64,000 nucleotides of DNA. Origin: Escherichia phage BYEP02. Location of the stretch: the sequence record OR757454.1. One strand, given 5' to 3'. A program made the translations under genes and the position numbers. Position 1 is the stretch's first letter. Every line of letters starts with the position of its first letter. Shown here one piece after another: positions 25,054 to 59,754 of the stretch. Under the pieces are notes generated by a model that searched no databases, was not told where the DNA came from, and was given only the letters and a program-made list of their open reading frames with translations.

Positions 25054-25904
<851 letters not shown>

Positions 25905-26417: not shown

Positions 26418-26680
26418 ATGAAACGTTGTGAATTAATTCGAAATGTTGCTATTGCAATTTCTGCTTCTGCTTTTAGTTTTTCAATGTTTGTTGGATTTAT
26501 ATGTGGATTATTAACTACAGCAGAAAATGTGTTTTCACTTGTAGTAGCATTTTTAATTGGTTTAATGTTGGATTTATATGTGGATTATTAACTACAGCAG
26601 AAAATGTGTTTTCACTTGTAGTAGCATTTTTAATTGGTTTAATTGCTGTCGTTATGGATAAAATTTCTAAAGGTGAATAG
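26418..26680 (+). CDS. Small hydrophobic protein; frameshifted by 77-bp duplication 26490-26643
   Basis: MKRCELIRNVAIAISASAFSFSMFVGFICGLLTTAENVFSLVVAFLIGLI... Confidence 0.5.
26490..26643. repeat. 77-bp tandem duplication inside small membrane-protein gene
   Basis: gttggatttatatgtggattattaactacagcagaaaatgtgttttcac... twice. Confidence 0.9.
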
Positions 26681-26681
26681 A

Positions 26682-27065
26682 ATGTATAAAGTGTACGCGG
26701 ATTATCAGGCTAATCCATCTGAAAAGCCAGGTTGTCAAATTGGATGGGCTCATGATACTTTGCTTGAAGCAGTAGATGCTGCTCAAAAATTAGGATATAA
26801 ATATGTAGAGATTGTTCAACTACCATCAGGAACAGTTATTACTCTTGAAGAGTTCAATAACATTAAACCAAACTTTTTACTTTTTGCAGGTGATAATTAT
26901 TATCCTCGTGGTGGATATGCTGATTTAATCGCGAAAGCCGCTACTGAAGATGAACTTCGTGATATTATCAAAGAAAATGAAAACAAACCGATGTATGGTT
27001 CTAATCGCTTTGATTGGTGGCAAATTGTAAATGCCCATACTCATACTATTGTTGATGAAGGTTGA
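26682..27065 (+). CDS. Hypothetical protein (127 aa)
   Basis: MYKVYADYQANPSEKPGCQIGWAHDTLLEAVDAAQKLGYKYVEIVQLPSG...; ORF 26643..27065. Confidence 0.55.
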   Translation: MYKVYADYQANPSEKPGCQIGWAHDTLLEAVDAAQKLGYKYVEIVQLPSGTVITLEEFNNIKPNFLLFAGDNYYPRGGYADLIAKAATEDELRDIIKENENKPMYGSNRFDWWQIVNAHTHTIVDEG

Positions 27066-27355
27066 TAATGATTCTTTATGCTAAAGTATCATCCATTGAA
27101 AATGGATATAAATATGATCAAGAAGCAGTTAAAGCCTTGATTGATGATTATGGCATTTTAACATGTTTTGAAGTTGAAAAGGTTTATGTTGACCGTTCAT
27201 CTTCTCAAGTTAAATTAGTGAAGGAAGACCGTAAATTTAATACAGTAAATTTTGATTTCTTTATTGAAACAGAAAAAGGTCCTCTTGAATATGATATTTT
27301 CAAGAATCCTTTGGGTCTTGAATGCATCGTAAATATGTATTATCATAAATGGTAA
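27062..27355 (+). CDS. Hypothetical protein (97 aa)
   Basis: ORF MIMILYAKVSSIENGYKYDQEAVKALIDDYGILTCFEVEKVYVDR...; start overlaps upstream stop. Confidence 0.5.
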   Translation: MIMILYAKVSSIENGYKYDQEAVKALIDDYGILTCFEVEKVYVDRSSSQVKLVKEDRKFNTVNFDFFIETEKGPLEYDIFKNPLGLECIVNMYYHKW

Positions 27356-27507
27356 ATATGCTTTAAGAATTATTTGTTATTATTAACTCATATCGCACTG
27401 ATTAATACCCTCTATCATCAAGGGTTCTTTAAATATGCTTTAAGAATTATTTGTTATTATTAACTCATACCGCACTGATTAATACCCTCTATCATCAAGG
27501 GTTCTTG
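27354..27507. repeat. 77-bp tandem duplication in the intergenic region upstream of the HNH endonuclease gene
   Basis: aaatatgctttaagaattatttgttattattaactcata(t/c)cgcactgattaataccc... twice. Confidence 0.9.
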
Positions 27508-27542
27508 TTTGAGAGCCTTTGTTAATAATTGGGAATCATATT

Positions 27543-28151
27543 ATGGATACTAAATTAGCTGAAATTTTTGAAGGAAAACATCCAAATTTTAGTACAGGAA
27601 AGCTGAAAGATAAAATAATAAAAGAAAATATTTTTCCATATGAGTGTGCAATTTGTAAAATTTCAAAATGGCAAAATAAGCATATTGTTCTGCAATTAGA
27701 CCATATTGACGGAAATAACAAAAATCATCTTAAATCAAATTTAAGATTATTATGTCCAAATTGCCATTCGCAAACTGATACTTTTGCTGGTAAAAATATT
27801 AAAAATAATAAAAAGCGTTATAATGTTAGTGATGAAGAAATTTTAAACGCATTATTAAATTCTGCTACTATATCATCTGCAATTACTTCATTAGGTTTAA
27901 GTAAAGGCGGAAACTATAAAAGATTCATTAAAATTGCTAATGATAATAAATTATATCATTTACTGGTAAATATTAATGAAAACATTTTAACTGATGAAAT
28001 TTACGAAGAATTAGTTAAAATTGATTATTCTAAATTTGGATGGGTTAGTAAAGCTGCTAAAATAATAGGTATAAGCCCACAAAAAGCTAGAAAATGGATA
28101 GAACGAAAGTGTCCAGAATTGATAGAACAATCTTTTTCACGTAATAAATAA
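27543..28151 (+). mobile_element. Free-standing HNH homing endonuclease gene immediately upstream of the tRNA cluster
   Basis: MDTKLAEIFEGK... with HNH motif DHIDGNNKNHLKSNLRLLCPNCH and C-terminal helix-turn-helix-like region. Confidence 0.7.
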
Positions 28152-28157
28152 TATAGA

Positions 28158-28244
28158 GCGAGAATGGTCAAATTGGTAAAGGCACAGCACTTAAAATGCT
28201 GCGGAATGATTTCCTTGTGGGTTCGAGTCCCACTTCTCGCACCA
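28158..28244 (+). tRNA. tRNA-Leu (anticodon TAA), type II
   Basis: Manual fold: acceptor gcgagaa/ttctcgc, anticodon loop cttaaaa, long variable arm, T-loop ggttcgagtcc, CCA encoded. Confidence 0.8.
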
Positions 28245-28249
28245 AATTT

Positions 28250-28323
<74 letters not shown>

Positions 28324-28477
28324 ATTTAATTTACTCCGTGTAGCTCAGTTTGGTAGAGCGTCTGCTTTGGGAGCAGAATGTCGCAGGTTCAAATCCTGCA
28401 ATTTAATTTACTCCGTGTAGCTCAGTTTGGTAGAGCGCCTGATTTGGGATCAGGAGGTCCAAGGTTCAAATCCTTGT
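28324..28477. repeat. 77-bp tandem unit covering tRNA-Pro; first 37 bp identical, remaining 40 bp diverged with compensatory stem changes
   Basis: atttaatttactccgtgtagctcagtttggtagagcg then tctgc..gcaga / cgcagg..cctgc versus cctga..tcagg / caagg..ccttg. Confidence 0.85.
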
Positions 28478-28484
28478 ATGGAGA
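28411..28484 (+). tRNA. tRNA-Pro (anticodon TGG); a partial divergent duplicate of its 5' half lies in the upstream repeat copy 28324-28400
   Basis: Anticodon stem-loop cctga-tttggga-tcagg, T-arm caagg-ttcaaat-ccttg, acceptor ctccgtg/tatggag (two G-U pairs); directly abuts tRNA-Ser. Confidence 0.7.
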
Positions 28485-28486
28485 CT

Positions 28487-28576
28487 GGAGGCGTGGCAGA
28501 GTGGTTTAATGCACCGGTCTTGAAAACCGGCAGTCGCTCCGGCGACTCATAGGTTCAAATCCTATCGCCTCCGCCA
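28487..28576 (+). tRNA. tRNA-Ser (anticodon TGA), type II
   Basis: Acceptor ggaggcg/cgcctcc, anticodon loop cttgaaa, long variable arm, T-loop ggttcaaatcc, CCA encoded. Confidence 0.8.
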
Positions 28577-28686
28577 GTTTTGCTGATTTAGCTCAGTAGG
28601 TAGAGCACAGTCGCTCCGGCGACTCATAGGTTCAAATCCTATCGCCTCCGCCAGTTTTTGCTGATTTAGCTCAGTAGGTAGAGCAC
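28532..28686. repeat. 77-bp tandem duplication spanning 3' half of tRNA-Ser and 5' half of tRNA-Thr (1-bp indel between copies)
   Basis: agtcgctccggcgactcataggttcaaatcctatcgcctccgccagtttt(t)gctgatttagctcagtaggtagagcac twice. Confidence 0.9.
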
Positions 28687-28735
28687 CTCACTTGTAATGA
28701 GGACGTCGGCGGTTCGATTCCGTCAATCAGCACCA
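28660..28735 (+). tRNA. tRNA-Thr (anticodon TGT)
   Basis: Acceptor gctgatt/aatcagc, anticodon loop cttgtaa, T-loop ggttcgattcc, CCA encoded; intact only via copy 2 of duplication 28532-28686. Confidence 0.78.
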
Positions 28736-28736
28736 A

Positions 28737-28811
28737 GGCCCTGTAGCTGGAAGGTTCAAGCAAGCGACTCATAATCGCCAGATGGTGGTTCAATTCCACC
28801 CAGGGCCACCA
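28737..28811 (+). tRNA. tRNA with anticodon CAT (Ile-lysidine type as in T4, or Met)
   Basis: Acceptor ggccctg/cagggcc, anticodon loop ctcataa, T-arm ggtgg-ttcaatt-ccacc, CCA encoded. Confidence 0.7.
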
Positions 28812-28820
28812 AATTAATTT

Positions 28821-28907
28821 GGGGAGTTATCCCGTAGAGGTAGCGGTGTGGACTGTAAATTCATTGTCATTGCGACTCGGGTGGTTCGACTCCACCACTC
28901 CCCACCA
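28821..28907 (+). tRNA. tRNA-Tyr (anticodon GTA), type II
   Basis: Acceptor ggggagt/actcccc, anticodon loop ctgtaaa, long variable arm, T-arm ggtgg-ttcgact-ccacc, CCA encoded. Confidence 0.65.
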
Positions 28908-28911
28908 ATTT

Positions 28912-28986
28912 GGATGTGTAGCTCAATGGCAGAGCGATCGCCTGTTAAGCGATTGGTTATAGGTTCGAATCCTATCACGTCCGCCA
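28912..28986 (+). tRNA. tRNA-Asn (anticodon GTT)
   Basis: Acceptor ggatgtg/cacgtcc, D-arm gctc-aatggca-gagc, anticodon loop ctgttaa, T-arm atagg-ttcgaat-cctat, CCA encoded. Confidence 0.75.
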
Positions 28987-29100
28987 AATTTGTGACAACT
29001 GTCACATTAATATCTACTTGACGCGATTATAGGGGTTGAACTGATCACTCTTCTCTTAATTTCGTGTGAAGACATCTTGATTGTTGGAGTAGGTATTAAT

Positions 29101-29166
29101 GTGGCCGTAGTTCAGTTGGTAGAACTCGAGATTGTGATTCTCGTAGTCATGGGTTCGACTCCCATC
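29101..29166 (+). tRNA. tRNA-His (anticodon GTG)
   Basis: Acceptor gtggccg/cggtcac, D-arm gttc-agttggta-gaac, anticodon stem-loop cgaga-ttgtgat-tctcg, T-arm atggg-ttcgact-cccat. Confidence 0.7.
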
Positions 29167-29170
29167 GGTC

Positions 29171-29246
29171 ACCCCAATTACGGGGCATAGCTCAGAAGGA
29201 AGAGCAAGGACCTTCTAAGTCCTAGGTCGTAGGTTCGATCCCTACT
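29171..29246 (+). tRNA. tRNA-Arg (anticodon TCT)
   Basis: Acceptor cggggca/tgcctcg, D-arm gctc-agaaggaa-gagc, anticodon loop cttctaa, T-loop ggttcgatccc, CCA encoded. Confidence 0.75.
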
Positions 29247-29274
29247 GCCTCGACCAATTATAAGTGAGGAAAAT

Positions 29275-29625
29275 ATGAAAGGTAATGTTTATTTAGTAGT
29301 TCATGATTTAACATTTTACTTCAATGAATATGAAAAACATATCTCATTTCGTGAAATTAATTTACTTTATCAACATGCGGATTATATTTATATTCAAAAC
29401 GAATTTGGTCATTGGCAATTTCTCAAAAATCGTTCATTTGGCTTAGATGGTTACGAATACTTTGAACGTAAAGACCTTTTAGATAAAATTCCGTTATCTA
29501 CGCAATATCAAAATCACAAATCTTTATATAAATGCCGTCCAATTCGAAATGTTGAATCCGCGTATGAAGCAATTGATTTATGGCGTGAACGCCGTAAACA
29601 GATTGATGCTTTAAAAGAATATTAA
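29275..29625 (+). CDS. Hypothetical protein (116 aa) within tRNA region
   Basis: ORF MKGNVYLVVHDLTFYFNEYEKHISFREINLLYQHADYIYIQNEFGHWQF... Confidence 0.5.
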   Translation: MKGNVYLVVHDLTFYFNEYEKHISFREINLLYQHADYIYIQNEFGHWQFLKNRSFGLDGYEYFERKDLLDKIPLSTQYQNHKSLYKCRPIRNVESAYEAIDLWRERRKQIDALKEY

Positions 29626-29886
29626 GAAACCGGGTCGCTACCGGTAAGTCGTCGGACTGATGTTCCCTGAGTAAGGAATTGCGTTAATAATCTTTGCGTT
29701 TATTGATGCCCTCTTACATCACAGCAGAAACGGCGCACCGAATTATCGATTCGAGGAAATATCTTTGCCGTAAGCCGAGTAGCGTTTTTGACGGAACGTT
29801 CGGATATGGTCGAGATATGGCCTTTTAAAAATATTGAGTAGCGTCAACTGCTTAATAACCGGGTTCGAATCCCGGCGTTTCGTACA
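29626..29886 (+). ncRNA. Candidate small stable RNA with tRNA-like T-arm (possibly analogous to T4 RNA species 1/2)
   Basis: Non-coding, GC-richer segment ending in ...ccgggttcgaatcccggcg (T-stem/loop-like) directly downstream of the tRNA cluster and followed by terminator hairpins. Confidence 0.35.
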
Positions 29887-29934
29887 AACACTTGCCTTAG
29901 CAGGTGGAACCCCGACAAGGTTGCCGCAAGGCTT

Positions 29935-29962
29935 AGCCCCGACCGAAAGGTTGGGGCTTTTT
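29935..29962 (+). terminator. Rho-independent terminator (first repeat copy)
   Basis: agccccgacc-gaaa-ggttggggct 10-bp stem, GAAA loop, TTTTT. Confidence 0.75.
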
Positions 29963-30015
29963 GGTATAACACTTGCCTTAGCAGGTGGAACCCCGACAAG
30001 GTTGCCGCAAGGCTT

Positions 30016-30043
30016 AGCCCCAGCCGAAAGGTTGGGGCTTTTT
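30016..30043 (+). terminator. Rho-independent terminator (second repeat copy)
   Basis: agccccagcc-gaaa-ggttggggct then ttttt. Confidence 0.7.
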
Positions 30044-30089
30044 AGTATAAATAAGTATATTAAATCTACAAATTAAAACAGGAAATAAG

Positions 30090-30563
30090 ATGAAATCATA
30101 TGCTCAATTTTTAAATGAAGCGGTGTTAAATGAAGCATCTAGCACTGAAATTCAAGCTGTTGCAAAAGCTGCCATTGCCGCGGGTAAATATTCCTATAAA
30201 GATGCTTCCGATGAATCACGATTCCAATTTGCTCGTGATATGAAAGCCGAAGGATTTACAGGGAATGCAGTTAGTATGGCTTGGAAAAGTTTAGTTGCTA
30301 CTGGAGCTGCTTTTGCAAAGGCTTCAGGTAAACCTGCTCCTAAGGCTGACCCTAAAGCAGCACAAGAAAAAAATATTGCTAAAGGAATTATCTCTAGGTA
30401 TGAAGCAATTCTTAAAGAACTTTTGATAATTAAGACCGAAGGCCAGAAACTTGCGCGTGCTTATAGTTTCAAAGATAATCCACATGCTCATGACCTAGAG
30501 TATGTTGAAGACCTCCAAAAAATCATCAAAGACCGCATTTGGTCTGCTAAACAAATCAAATAA
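30090..30563 (+). CDS. Internal-protein-like injected protein (N-terminal capsid-targeting sequence MKSYAQFLNEA), 157 aa
   Basis: N-terminus MKSYAQFLNEAVLNEA matches the MKTYxEFxxEA leader shared with the other internal-protein ORFs; Ala/Lys-rich. Confidence 0.6.
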   Translation: MKSYAQFLNEAVLNEASSTEIQAVAKAAIAAGKYSYKDASDESRFQFARDMKAEGFTGNAVSMAWKSLVATGAAFAKASGKPAPKADPKAAQEKNIAKGIISRYEAILKELLIIKTEGQKLARAYSFKDNPHAHDLEYVEDLQKIIKDRIWSAKQIK

Positions 30564-30570
30564 CATTCTT

Positions 30571-30598
30571 AGCCCCGACCAAAAGGTTGGGGCTTTTT
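30571..30598 (+). terminator. Rho-independent terminator (third copy of the same hairpin)
   Basis: agccccgacc-aaaa-ggttggggct + ttttt immediately after the stop at 30563. Confidence 0.75.
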
Positions 30599-30731
30599 GG
30601 TATCTAGGCCTTTCCGGGCCTCTCTAGGCATCATTTAGTTTATACCCTTTATAATATATTATCCTACCTTTTAATTGCCCCTCCTGACCCTAGAATTCCC
30701 TAAAACTTTTTAAAAATTTTTTCACAAAACT

Positions 30732-56845: not shown

Positions 56846-57396
56846 ATGTTATTGACTGGCAAATTATACAAAGAAGAAAAACAGAAATTTTATGATGCAC
56901 AAAACGGTAAATGCTTAATTTGCCAACGAGAACTAAATCCTGATGTTCAAGCTAATCACCTTGACCATGACCATGAATTAAATGGACCGAAAGCTGGAAA
57001 GGTGCGTGGATTGCTCTGTAATCTTTGCAATGCTGCGGAAGGTCAAATGAAGCATAAATTTAATCGTTCTGGCTTAAAGGGACAAGGTGTTGATTATCTT
57101 GAATGGTTAGAAAATTTACTTACTTATTTAAAATCCGATTACACCCAAAATAATATTCACCCTAACTTTGTTGGAGATAAATCAAAGGAATTTTCTCGTT
57201 TAGGAAAAGAGGAAATGATGGCTGAGATGCTTCAAAGAGGATTTGAATATAATGAATCTGACACGAATTTTCTCGTTTAGGAAAAGAGGAAATGATGGCC
57301 GAGATGCTTCAAAGAGGATTTGAATATAATGAATCTGACACAAAAACACAGTTAATAGCTTCATTCAAGAAGCAGCTTAGAAAGAGTTTAAAATGA
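56846..57396 (+). CDS. 49: Endonuclease VII (Holliday junction resolvase) gp49; frameshifted by 77-bp duplication 57189-57342
   Basis: MLLTGKLYKEEKQKFYDAQNGKCLICQRELNPDVQANHLDHDHELNGPKAGKVRGLLCNLCNAAEG...; span minus 77 = 157 codons + stop. Confidence 0.88.
57189..57342. repeat. 77-bp tandem duplication inside gene 49
   Basis: aattttctcgtttaggaaaagaggaaatgatggc(t/c)gagatgcttcaaagagg... twice. Confidence 0.9.
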
Positions 57397-59287
57397 CAAT
57401 TGAAAAAGAAATTGAAGGATTGATTCATAAAACTAATAAAGACCTTTTGAACGAGAATGCTAATAAAGATTCTCGTGTTTTTCCAACTCAACGGGACCTT
57501 ATGGCTGGTATTGTGTCTAAACACATTGCCAAAAATATGGTCCCGTCTTTTATTATGAAAGCGCATGAAAGCGGAATTATTCATTTCCATGATATTGATT
57601 ATTCCCCTGCTCTTCCATTTACTAATTGCTGTTTAGTAGATTTAAAAGGAATGCTTGAGAACGGATTTAAGCTTGGTAATGCACAGATTGAAACTCCTAA
57701 ATCAATTGGCGTTGCTACTGCAATTATGGCACAAATTACTGCACAGGTTGCTTCCCATCAATATGGCGGAACGACTTTTGCGAATGTAGATAAAGTACTT
57801 TCTCCTTATGTTAAACGCACATATGCAAAACATATTGAGGATGCAGAAAAATGGCAAATCGCTGATGCGTTGAATTATGCTCAATCTAAAACAGAAAAAG
57901 ACGTATACGATGCATTCCAAGCTTATGAATATGAAGTAAATACTCTCTTTAGTTCAAACGGGCAAACACCTTTTGTAACAATTACATTTGGTACGGGAAC
58001 TGACTGGACTGAACGAATGATTCAGAAAGCAATTCTGAAAAATCGTATTAAAGGTCTTGGTCGTGATGGGATAACTCCTATTTTCCCTAAGCTTGTTATG
58101 TTTGTTGAAGAAGGTGTTAATCTTTACAAAGACGATCCGAACTATGATATTAAGCAGCTTGCTCTAGAGTGTGCAAGCAAAAGGATGTATCCTGATATTA
58201 TTTCAGCTAAGAACAATAAAGCTATCACTGGTTCATCTATTCCTGTTTCTCCAATGGGATGCCGTAGTTTCTTGAGCGTATGGAAAGATTCGACTGGCAA
58301 TGAAATTCTTGATGGACGTAATAATCTTGGTGTTGTAACACTGAATCTTCCTCGCATCGCGTTAGATTCTTATATTGGAACACAGTTCAATGAACAGAAA
58401 TTTGTTGAATTATTCAATGAACGAATGGATTTGTGTTTTGAAGCTTTGATGTGTAGAATTAGTTCCTTAAAAGGAGTTAAAGCTACTGTTGCTCCTATTC
58501 TTTACCAAGAAGGTGCATTCGGGGTTCGTCTTAAACCTGATGACGATATAATTGAGTTATTTAAAAACGGTAGAAGTTCAGTCAAGAAGGTGCATTCGGG
58601 GTTCGTCTTAAACCTGATGACGACATAATTGAGTTATTTAAAAACGGTAGAAGTTCAGTGTCCTTAGGATACATTGGTATTCACGAATTGAATATTCTTG
58701 TCGGTCGTGATATTGGACAAGAAATTTTAACTAAGATGAATGCTCATCTTAAACAGTGGACCGAAAGAACCGGTTTTGCTTTTAGCTTGTATTCTACTCC
58801 TGCTGAAAACCTTTGCTATCGCTTCTGTAAACTTGATACTGAAAAATATGGAAGCGTAAAAGATGTTACTGATAAAGGTTGGTACACTAATAGTTTCCAT
58901 GTTTCAGTAGAAGAAAATATCACTCCGTTTGAAAAGATTTCTCGTGAAGCACCATATCATTTCATTGCGACAGGTGGTCACATTTCTTATGTTGAACTTC
59001 CTGATATGAAAAATAACCTAAAAGGTCTTGAGGCTGTATGGGATTATGCTGCACAACATTTAGATTATTTTGGTGTTAACATGCCAGTAGATAAATGTTT
59101 TACGTGTGGAAGCACTCATGAAATGACTCCTACTGAAAACGGATTTGTTTGTTCTATTTGTGGAGAAACTGATCCTAAAAAGATGAACACAATAAGAAGA
59201 ACATGCGGCTATCTTGGAAACCCGAACGAACGCGGATTTAATCTCGGCAAAAATAAAGAAATCATGCATAGGGTTAAACACCAATGA
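57393..59287 (+). CDS. nrdD: Anaerobic ribonucleoside-triphosphate reductase NrdD (no intron); frameshifted by 77-bp duplication 58506-58659
   Basis: MTIEKEIEGLIHKTNKDLLNENANKDSRVF...; C-terminal Zn-ribbon CFTCGSTHE...CSICGE and glycyl-radical site RRTCGYLGN; span minus 77 = 605 codons + stop. Confidence 0.9.
58506..58659. repeat. 77-bp tandem duplication inside nrdD
   Basis: caagaaggtgcattcggggttcgtcttaaacctgatgacga(t/c)ataattgag... twice. Confidence 0.9.
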
Positions 59288-59754
59288 ATTATGATAGATT
59301 TTATCCTTGCGATTTTATTAATGGTCCTGGCTGCAGGACCGTTCTTTTCGTTACAGGTTGTTTGCATAAATGTGAAGGGTGTTATAATAAATCAACATGG
59401 AATGCTAGAAATGGTATTCCATTCACTGGTGAAACACTAGAGCAATTAATTGAATGTTTGAATAATGATTATATAGAAGGATTGACTATAACTGGAGGTG
59501 ACCCTCTCTATCCTGATAACCGAGATGTTATTCATTGCATTGTTCAAACAGTAAAAAATCTTTATCCCAATAAAAGCATTTGGTTGTGGACAGGATATAA
59601 GTTTGAAGATATTAAACAACTAGAAATGCTTAAATATGTTGATGTTATTATTGATGGGAAGTATGAGAAAAATCTTCCGACCAAAAAGCTGTGGCGAGGT
59701 TCAGATAATCAGCGACTTTGGTCAAATACCGATGGGGTGTGGAAACATGATTAA
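59284..59754 (+). CDS. nrdG: Anaerobic ribonucleotide reductase activating protein NrdG (radical SAM)
   Basis: MNYDRFYPCDFINGPGCRTVLFVTGCLHKCEGCYNKSTWN...; Cys cluster CLHKCEGC. Confidence 0.85.
   Translation: MNYDRFYPCDFINGPGCRTVLFVTGCLHKCEGCYNKSTWNARNGIPFTGETLEQLIECLNNDYIEGLTITGGDPLYPDNRDVIHCIVQTVKNLYPNKSIWLWTGYKFEDIKQLEMLKYVDVIIDGKYEKNLPTKKLWRGSDNQRLWSNTDGVWKHD

Follow-up and report, generated by a model that had tools for sequence, protein, structure and literature searches.

The HNH gene and its surroundings

An ORF for an HNH endonuclease is located between trna.2 and tRNA-Leu in the window, by which we mean the whole 64,000-nucleotide stretch of Escherichia phage BYEP02 that was analysed, and the features of the locus are collected in Table 1. 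The mechanical start given in the ORF list is an alternative TTG at 27519, eight codons 5′ of the ATG. The motif DHIDGNNKNHLKSNLRLLCPNCH, which the earlier note had described as a clear HNH motif, is present in the translation of this ORF, and the coordinates given for it were borne out.

A 4-kb query around the ORF was 99.5-99.6% identical to the Escherichia phages slur03, slur08 and slur14 (Tequatrovirus, T4-like), and the RefSeq record of slur03 carries the same 609-nt ORF under the label 'HNH endonuclease' (YP_009625111.1). When phage records were searched by tblastn, a protein at least 95% identical was obtained in 63 of them, with a full-length ORF in all 63, and phage PBM-1 was found to encode an identical protein (100%). 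The labels across the matching records are hypothetical protein, HNH endonuclease, homing endonuclease and 'H-N-H endonuclease F-TflIV'; the gene and its annotation are thus already public in RefSeq/GenBank. A search of the literature yielded no paper on this particular HNH gene, and nothing relevant was found on T4_ev151 and T4_ev240, two records which carry it. The ORF is real and not a chance reading frame, because it matches PHROG 14736 from end to end, has 5520 homologs at E≤0.001 in a large-database search, and nearly all substitutions among its Tequatrovirus copies are synonymous.

With regard to expression, a T4 middle-promoter-like motif was found about 85 nt 5′ of the ORF, ahead of the tRNA cluster, and in T4 the same motif sequence precedes tRNA-Gln. 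The pattern TGCTTYA-N11-13-TANNNT occurs 13 times in the window, where 2.3 occurrences were expected. These matches lie at 27359-27383, 27436-27460 and 11 other sites, and two pairs of them are copies produced by the 77-bp artefact described below. Judged by its sequence, the motif at 27436-27460 would act as a promoter. A scan for sigma-70 promoters gave no more signal than shuffled sequence did, the search for intrinsic terminators at the locus was negative, and the fold of the leader RNA was ordinary (z=-0.8). In the tRNA precursor transcript, the HNH ORF probably comes as the first cistron, and in that case the mRNA would be cut by RNase P 6 nt past the stop codon when tRNA-Leu is processed, by analogy with the proposal made for segB in the literature.

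Table 1. Features at the HNH locus, in coordinates of the window
Feature	Position	Strand	Basis
HNH endonuclease ORF	27543..28151	+	ATG 27543, TAA 28149-28151, stop included; 202 aa
HNH catalytic and predicted zinc core, aa 35-75	27645..27767	+	C35-x2-C38, D53-H54, N66, C71-x2-C74-H75
Middle three-helix module (predicted), aa 96-135	27828..27947	+	AF2 helices 97-105, 110-116, 121-134
C-terminal helix-turn-helix module (predicted), aa 159-195	28017..28127	+	AF2 helices 167-175, 179-189
Left junction TGGGAAT, first 7 nt of tRNA-Gln	27530..27536	+	Alignment with T4 and Aplg8 tRNA-Gln alleles
tRNA-Leu(UAA), right cassette boundary	28158..28244	+	ARAGORN, Rfam; identical to T4 tRNA-Leu in junction alignment
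tRNA cluster, 10 genes: Leu, Gly, Pro, Ser, Thr, Met, Tyr, Asn, His, Arg	28158..29256	+	ARAGORN
T4 middle-promoter-like motif: MotA box TGCTTTA, 12 nt, TATTAT	27436..27460	+	Pattern search
Artefactual 77-bp duplication, upstream intergenic	27353..27506	.	Tandem Repeats Finder; promoter-like motif doubled

The HNH ORF takes the place of tRNA-Gln

In T4, the transcript order is ipI, trna.4, trna.3, trna.2, tRNA-Gln, Leu, Gly, Pro, Ser, Thr, Ile, segB, tRNA-Arg, rnaD and rnaC, and in the window and slur03 it is ipI, trna.4, trna.3, trna.2, HNH and then tRNA-Leu onward. The junctions were compared in a six-way alignment. The shared sequence runs through …TTAATAATTGGGAAT, after which the remainder of tRNA-Gln (73 nt) follows in T4 and Aplg8; in the HNH alleles (window, slur03, CM8 and JEP6), …CATATTATG and the HNH ORF come next. 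All aligned alleles rejoin at GCGAGAATGG, which is the start of tRNA-Leu. The stub of tRNA-Gln kept at the left junction is listed for the window in Table 1, and in slur03 it amounts to 9 nt (TGGGAATTA). With identical flanks and precise junctions in this alignment, the HNH ORF replaces tRNA-Gln; it is a free-standing gene and an exact allelic substitute for that tRNA gene. ARAGORN found no tRNA-Gln in the tRNA cluster of the window.

The earlier note had called the gene a free-standing HNH nuclease next to the tRNA cluster, and this description was upheld: the tRNA-Leu gene begins 6 nt past the stop codon, and in 27000-30700 Rfam at the gathering threshold gave tRNAs alone and no intron. The same note had suggested that the gene may explain local cassette differences in tRNA content and upstream ORFs, which holds true for the missing tRNA-Gln. 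It does not extend to the Met-Tyr-Asn-His tRNA set; because this set is also present in Aplg8, which is HNH-less, the gene explains the loss of tRNA-Gln only. The upstream trna.4, trna.3 and trna.2 are likewise as in T4.

A 114-bp gap without any tRNA call separates tRNA-Asn from tRNA-His (28987-29100), and slur03 and Aplg8 have the gap too. A degenerate tRNA might be present in it, or else a small RNA.

Duplications of 77 bp in the window

Across the window (1-64000), Tandem Repeats Finder gave some 50 tandem duplications, each with two copies of 77 bp that are 88-100% identical, at intervals of 0.2-4.8 kb; examples are 437-594, 25438-25591, 26489-26643, 27353-27506, 28322-28474, 28531-28686, 29887-30050 and 58506-58659. 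They are absent from slur03 and Aplg8. These duplications are almost certainly an assembly artefact, in which graph nodes or contigs were joined with a 77-base overlap left untrimmed, and the differences of a few bases between copies suggest mixed strains. Because a length of 77 is not divisible by 3, the duplications shift reading frames falsely and break up ORFs (57B, trna.4 and nrdD).

The HNH ORF is free of such duplications, the nearest ones being 27353-27506 and 28322-28474. The upstream intergenic gap measures 187 bp in the window against 110 bp in slur03. Two of the artefacts (28322-28474 and 28531-28686) are inside the tRNA cluster, where a partial extra tRNA-Pro appears at 28341-28399. 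An '81-bp repeat' at 29887-30050 was considered as a possibly genuine RNA element and was rejected, as it is another instance of the 77-bp artefact and slur03 and Aplg8 lack it. At 57393-59754, nrdG directly follows nrdD, and nrdD appears split at about 58628-58658 through the 77-bp artefact only. This arrangement is unlike that of T4, as there is no mobC between nrdD and nrdG and apparently no I-TevII intron in nrdD.

The protein belongs to the HNH superfamily

PHROG 14736, 'HNH endonuclease', matched the protein over its entire length (E=2.5e-123), and another 13 PHROGs, annotated as HNH or endonuclease VII, matched it less strongly. The best PADLOC match was 'HEase' (homing endonuclease) at aa 16-92 (E=2.2e-19), followed by ZorE HNH (E=6.4e-10), and the top NCBIfam match was the IscB HNH region (E=4.8e-6). 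Pfam HNH (PF01844) matched the protein itself at aa 45-77 with 17.3 bits, which is under the 21.4-bit cut-off; among the aligned homologs at E≤0.001, PF01844 was found in 39 of 58 and HNH_3 in 26 of 58.

In alignments of 46 and 58 homologs, C35, C38, H54, G57, N66, C71, N73 and C74 were invariant, and D53, H75 and W43 were at least nearly invariant. The catalytic His (D53-H54), the structural Asn (N66) and the metal-binding helix residues (N73/H75) are all present. The two invariant CxxC pairs, C35-x2-C38 and C71-x2-C74, make up a predicted Cys4 zinc site, as in the McrA/endonuclease VII-like subgroup. As read from the sequence, CxxC…DH…N…CxxCH is the classic arrangement of an HNH nuclease with a putative structural zinc site, and the protein is a member of the HNH / His-Me finger superfamily. 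A non-nuclease zinc-finger family, which the earlier note had named as the contrary case, was ruled out by the invariance of the catalytic His/Asn/His and of both CxxC pairs together with the Pfam HNH matches among the homologs.

No GIY-YIG domain was detected in the protein by Pfam. Sequence searches of the PDB, both with the single sequence and with a profile, gave nothing beyond chance, and the matches to ComM, cytochrome c552 and TraI were dismissed as such. A weak tblastn match at 58907-59029 lies inside NrdD and was also put down to chance.

Predicted structure and DNA-binding modules

The AF2 model of the whole protein (pLDDT 85.8, pTM 0.44) consists of well-folded modules joined by flexible linkers. 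When the N-domain was modelled alone (pLDDT 88, pTM 0.74), the motif was covered by two predicted strands, 51-54 and 67-70, and a helix; in the core, the helix at 72-75 comes after the two strands, with pLDDT above 90. Both the full and the N-domain models were compared with the PDB by Foldseek, and the best match had E=0.11, with none below E=0.1. The top of the list was made up nearly entirely of HNH nucleases (EcoKMcrA, ScoMcrA, Cap5, PacI, Gme HNH, Cas9 HNH and I-HmuI), at values that are not significant. The models are consistent with membership in the beta-beta-alpha-metal fold and do not prove it; because no Foldseek match fell below E=0.1, fold membership rests on the motif and profile evidence.

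Behind the nuclease domain, two helical modules were predicted (Table 1). The middle one contains a block conserved in the homologs, SDEELL..A...GL...GNY.R, and from the model it is predicted to bind DNA. For the C-terminal one, weak matches to Pfam HTH_29, P22_Cro and HTH_17 were obtained at aa 164-192, and PHROG 16521 matches the protein at aa 76-188. An HNH domain (aa 1-90) with two helical modules behind it (aa 96-135 and 159-195) is the predicted layout, and homing endonucleases typically have this arrangement.

The C-terminal helix-turn-helix (aa 159-195) also resembles a stretch of the slur07 GIY-YIG endonuclease (L010 4317-4922, aa 171-194), with 12 of 24 residues identical (E=2e-4). 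PHROG 16521 is matched by the HNH protein, by this GIY-YIG endonuclease and by a 160-aa ORF of T4_ev240 (L011 5047-5526). Such sequence likeness hints at a DNA-binding module common to different nuclease families.

Distribution of the two alleles

The query for the tRNA-Gln allele was 121 nt of T4 sequence comprising the flank, tRNA-Gln and the tRNA-Leu start, and records with a coverage of at least 80% were counted. By this measure, the tRNA-Gln allele was found in 448 phage records and the HNH allele, at the same query coverage (≥80%), in 63, or about 12%. When each allele query was matched to the other allele, only the shared flank of 37-38 nt was aligned, and the HNH and tRNA-Gln alleles are therefore mutually exclusive at the site.

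The HNH allele occurs in two upstream contexts, with (CM8) or without (slur03) an extra 171-aa ORF, and in at least four downstream arrangements. In slur03 it is combined with a T2-type tRNA set, in CM8 with a GIY-YIG gene replacing tRNA-Pro, in JEP6 with a T4-type segB, and in T4_ev240 with a 160-aa ORF replacing tRNA-Thr. Independent assortment of this kind is as expected of a mobile cassette, and ordinary recombination could also yield it.

Other slots of the cluster were seen to be occupied as well. In slur07 (L010 4317-4925) and CM8 (L004 4432-5040), the gene that replaces tRNA-Pro encodes a 202-aa GIY-YIG/NUMOD3 endonuclease. In the product of the T4_ev240 ORF at tRNA-Thr (L011 5047-5529), which belongs to PHROG 16521, no nuclease domain was detected, and in JEP6 segB (L005 3957-4622) stands before tRNA-Arg. 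The Tequatrovirus tRNA cluster is a multi-slot hotspot for tRNA-to-ORF swaps.

Selection and orthologs

The Tequatrovirus copies of the gene differ by 4-11 synonymous vs 0-1 nonsynonymous substitutions (dN/dS ≤0.05), and towards orthologs at 58-68% identity dN/dS was 0.10-0.28, with dS being saturated. Judging by these substitutions, the gene is under strong purifying selection and its function appears to be retained.

The orthologs (58-68% identity) were found in three uncultured T4-like contigs (L007 3911-4603; L008 and L009 4001-4609), in a slot after gp2, gp3, dNMP kinase, 57A, 57B and small ORFs and before the tRNAs. They are about as divergent as the core genes on either side (45-76% identity). 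In L007, the ortholog lies 15 nt 3′ of an intact, divergent tRNA-Gln, and hence the cleavage target need not be inside tRNA-Gln; in L008 and L009, the sequence TAATTGGAAT just 5′ of the ortholog resembles the Tequatrovirus left junction. When tblastn was run with the distant orthologs P0002 and P0004 against the phage collection, Tequatrovirus copies alone were recovered, so that the phages of contigs L007-L009 are absent from this collection.

Because purifying selection is combined with same-slot orthologs that diverged like core genes, the protein is, as far as sequences can indicate, functional and of long standing at the 5′ border of the tRNA array. Same-slot orthologs with core-like divergence are compatible with active homing and equally with long vertical residence or with domestication. 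In the few flanks that were compared, no sign of co-conversion was detected.

Proposed mechanism and alternatives

We regard the protein as probably an active free-standing HNH homing endonuclease, which would cut or nick the HNH-less allele and spread by repair. The enzyme would be modular, with a beta-beta-alpha-metal nuclease stabilised by zinc at the N-terminus and two helical modules for DNA binding in the C-terminal part. In a mixed infection, its nick or cut would fall within or close to tRNA-Gln on the HNH-less allele, and recombinational repair off the HNH-bearing genome would copy the gene in, with tRNA-Gln being replaced. The carrier would be immune, since the site is deleted. We infer the enzymatic activity, the target site, the nick or double-strand break and homing itself.

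The occupation of the same 5′-edge slot under strong purifying selection, in phages with core-gene identities of only 45-76%, would also suit a domesticated nuclease which is kept for the benefit of the phage and is not purely a selfish spreading element. Such an enzyme might exclude tRNA-region markers of co-infecting T-even phages, or its breaks might, by analogy, drive recombination or amplification of the tRNA locus; according to a recent report, SegB-induced breaks amplify the tRNA locus against the Septu defence (PMC13096335). We consider domestication rather unlikely, however, as the gene is patchy (about 12% of the Tequatrovirus-type records, 63 vs 448) in the way a selfish element is, it costs the phage one tRNA gene, and no defence-related partner gene adjoins it. 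That the protein has lost catalysis and persists as an inactive relic or as a DNA-binding regulator is highly improbable, since the catalytic and zinc ligands are all intact and invariant and the ORF is full-length in 63 of 63 records with dN/dS ≤0.05 within the genus. The Pfam HNH score under the gathering threshold and the non-significant structure matches do point towards a relic, and many homing endonuclease genes decay after fixation.

The gene sits in the tRNA/internal-protein region, far from the terminase genes, and most Tequatrovirus genomes are without it, so that it is not essential; moreover, the predicted helix-turn-helix modules are typical of site-specific homing enzymes. These points leave only the slightest chance for a packaging-associated HNH protein like HK97 gp74, which assists terminase, or for a general DNA-degrading nuclease, even though the combination of HNH and CxxC is common to such proteins (discussed in PMC10448857).

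A wider view, which we hold to be unlikely, takes the T-even tRNA cluster to have at least four slots in which a tRNA is exchanged for a nuclease-type ORF, with a PHROG 16521-like C-terminal DNA-binding module that is common to the occupants, specialised for tRNA-gene DNA and shuffled between catalytic domains of the HNH and GIY-YIG types, and the HNH gene to be an ancient beneficial resident retained across T4-like genera. If this were true, HNH breaks would help the phage, for example by marker exclusion or by amplification of the tRNA locus against tRNA-targeting defences. The HNH gene fits the familiar picture of homing endonuclease genes in T-even phages and matters little alone. The additions are small, namely the exact swap with tRNA-Gln, the multi-slot pattern, and kinship with F-TflIV and none with SegB or MobC; no new kind of system is introduced. 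In T-even phages, the two alleles provide a clean natural pair on which HNH-driven homing and marker exclusion could be tested, and they may be relevant to changes in the tRNA repertoires of phages facing host defences that target tRNAs.

Comparison with known endonucleases

The copies in slur03 and about 60 other Tequatrovirus records, grouped in PHROG 14736, share 98-100% protein identity, equal length and the position between trna.2 and tRNA-Leu with the window copy, which differs from that of slur03 by one amino acid and otherwise in nothing of substance.

The earlier note had likened the position of the gene to that of T4 segB and had proposed a synteny comparison with segB and the mob genes. 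Part of this stood, as SegB is also encoded by a free-standing endonuclease gene in the same tRNA operon. The slots, however, are different: segB is found at the 3′ end of the cluster, flanked by tRNA-Ile and tRNA-Arg, the HNH gene has the place of tRNA-Gln at the 5′ end, and the two coexist in JEP6. SegB cuts within the tRNA genes of T2L, which is SegB-less, and the region is inherited preferentially (PMC2330249). The homing mechanism proposed here for the HNH protein would be analogous to that of SegB, but SegB is a GIY-YIG enzyme of another nuclease superfamily and has no sequence similarity to the HNH protein (E=2.0). Membership in the T4 Seg (GIY-YIG) family was rejected, given the lack of both a GIY-YIG match in Pfam and any similarity to SegB.

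The T4 MobA-E proteins are encoded by free-standing HNH genes of T-even phages, as is the protein described here. Membership in the Mob family was rejected on a BLASTP comparison with MobC (E=1.1), the sole Mob protein compared. MobC matches Pfam HNH through a different short stretch. A classification of His-Me finger nucleases places MobA-E in the same broad HNH group as F-TflIV.

I-HmuI (PDB 1u3e) has an N-terminal HNH domain followed by helical and helix-turn-helix DNA-binding modules, which is similar to the layout predicted for the HNH protein. Its Foldseek match to the N-domain was not significant (E=1.0, 34 columns). It differs in that it is an intron-encoded nicking enzyme and in that its group, HNH_3, lacks the double CxxC zinc site.

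The closest named relative is F-TflIV (HegA) of T5/BF23, with 34% identity over 169 aa (E=5e-22) in an alignment which spans the HNH core and the C-terminal helix-turn-helix; in T5-like phages, tblastn covered 84% of the HNH query. Papers name F-TflIV among the site-specific endonucleases that phage T5 encodes in its region of tRNA genes. In BF23, its gene is free-standing, about 1 kb 5′ of a T5-type tRNA run with small ORFs between, and no tRNA is replaced. F-TflIV is 227 aa long, carries an extra N-terminal helix-turn-helix of the LuxR/GerE type, is without the middle helical module and belongs to a different phage family.
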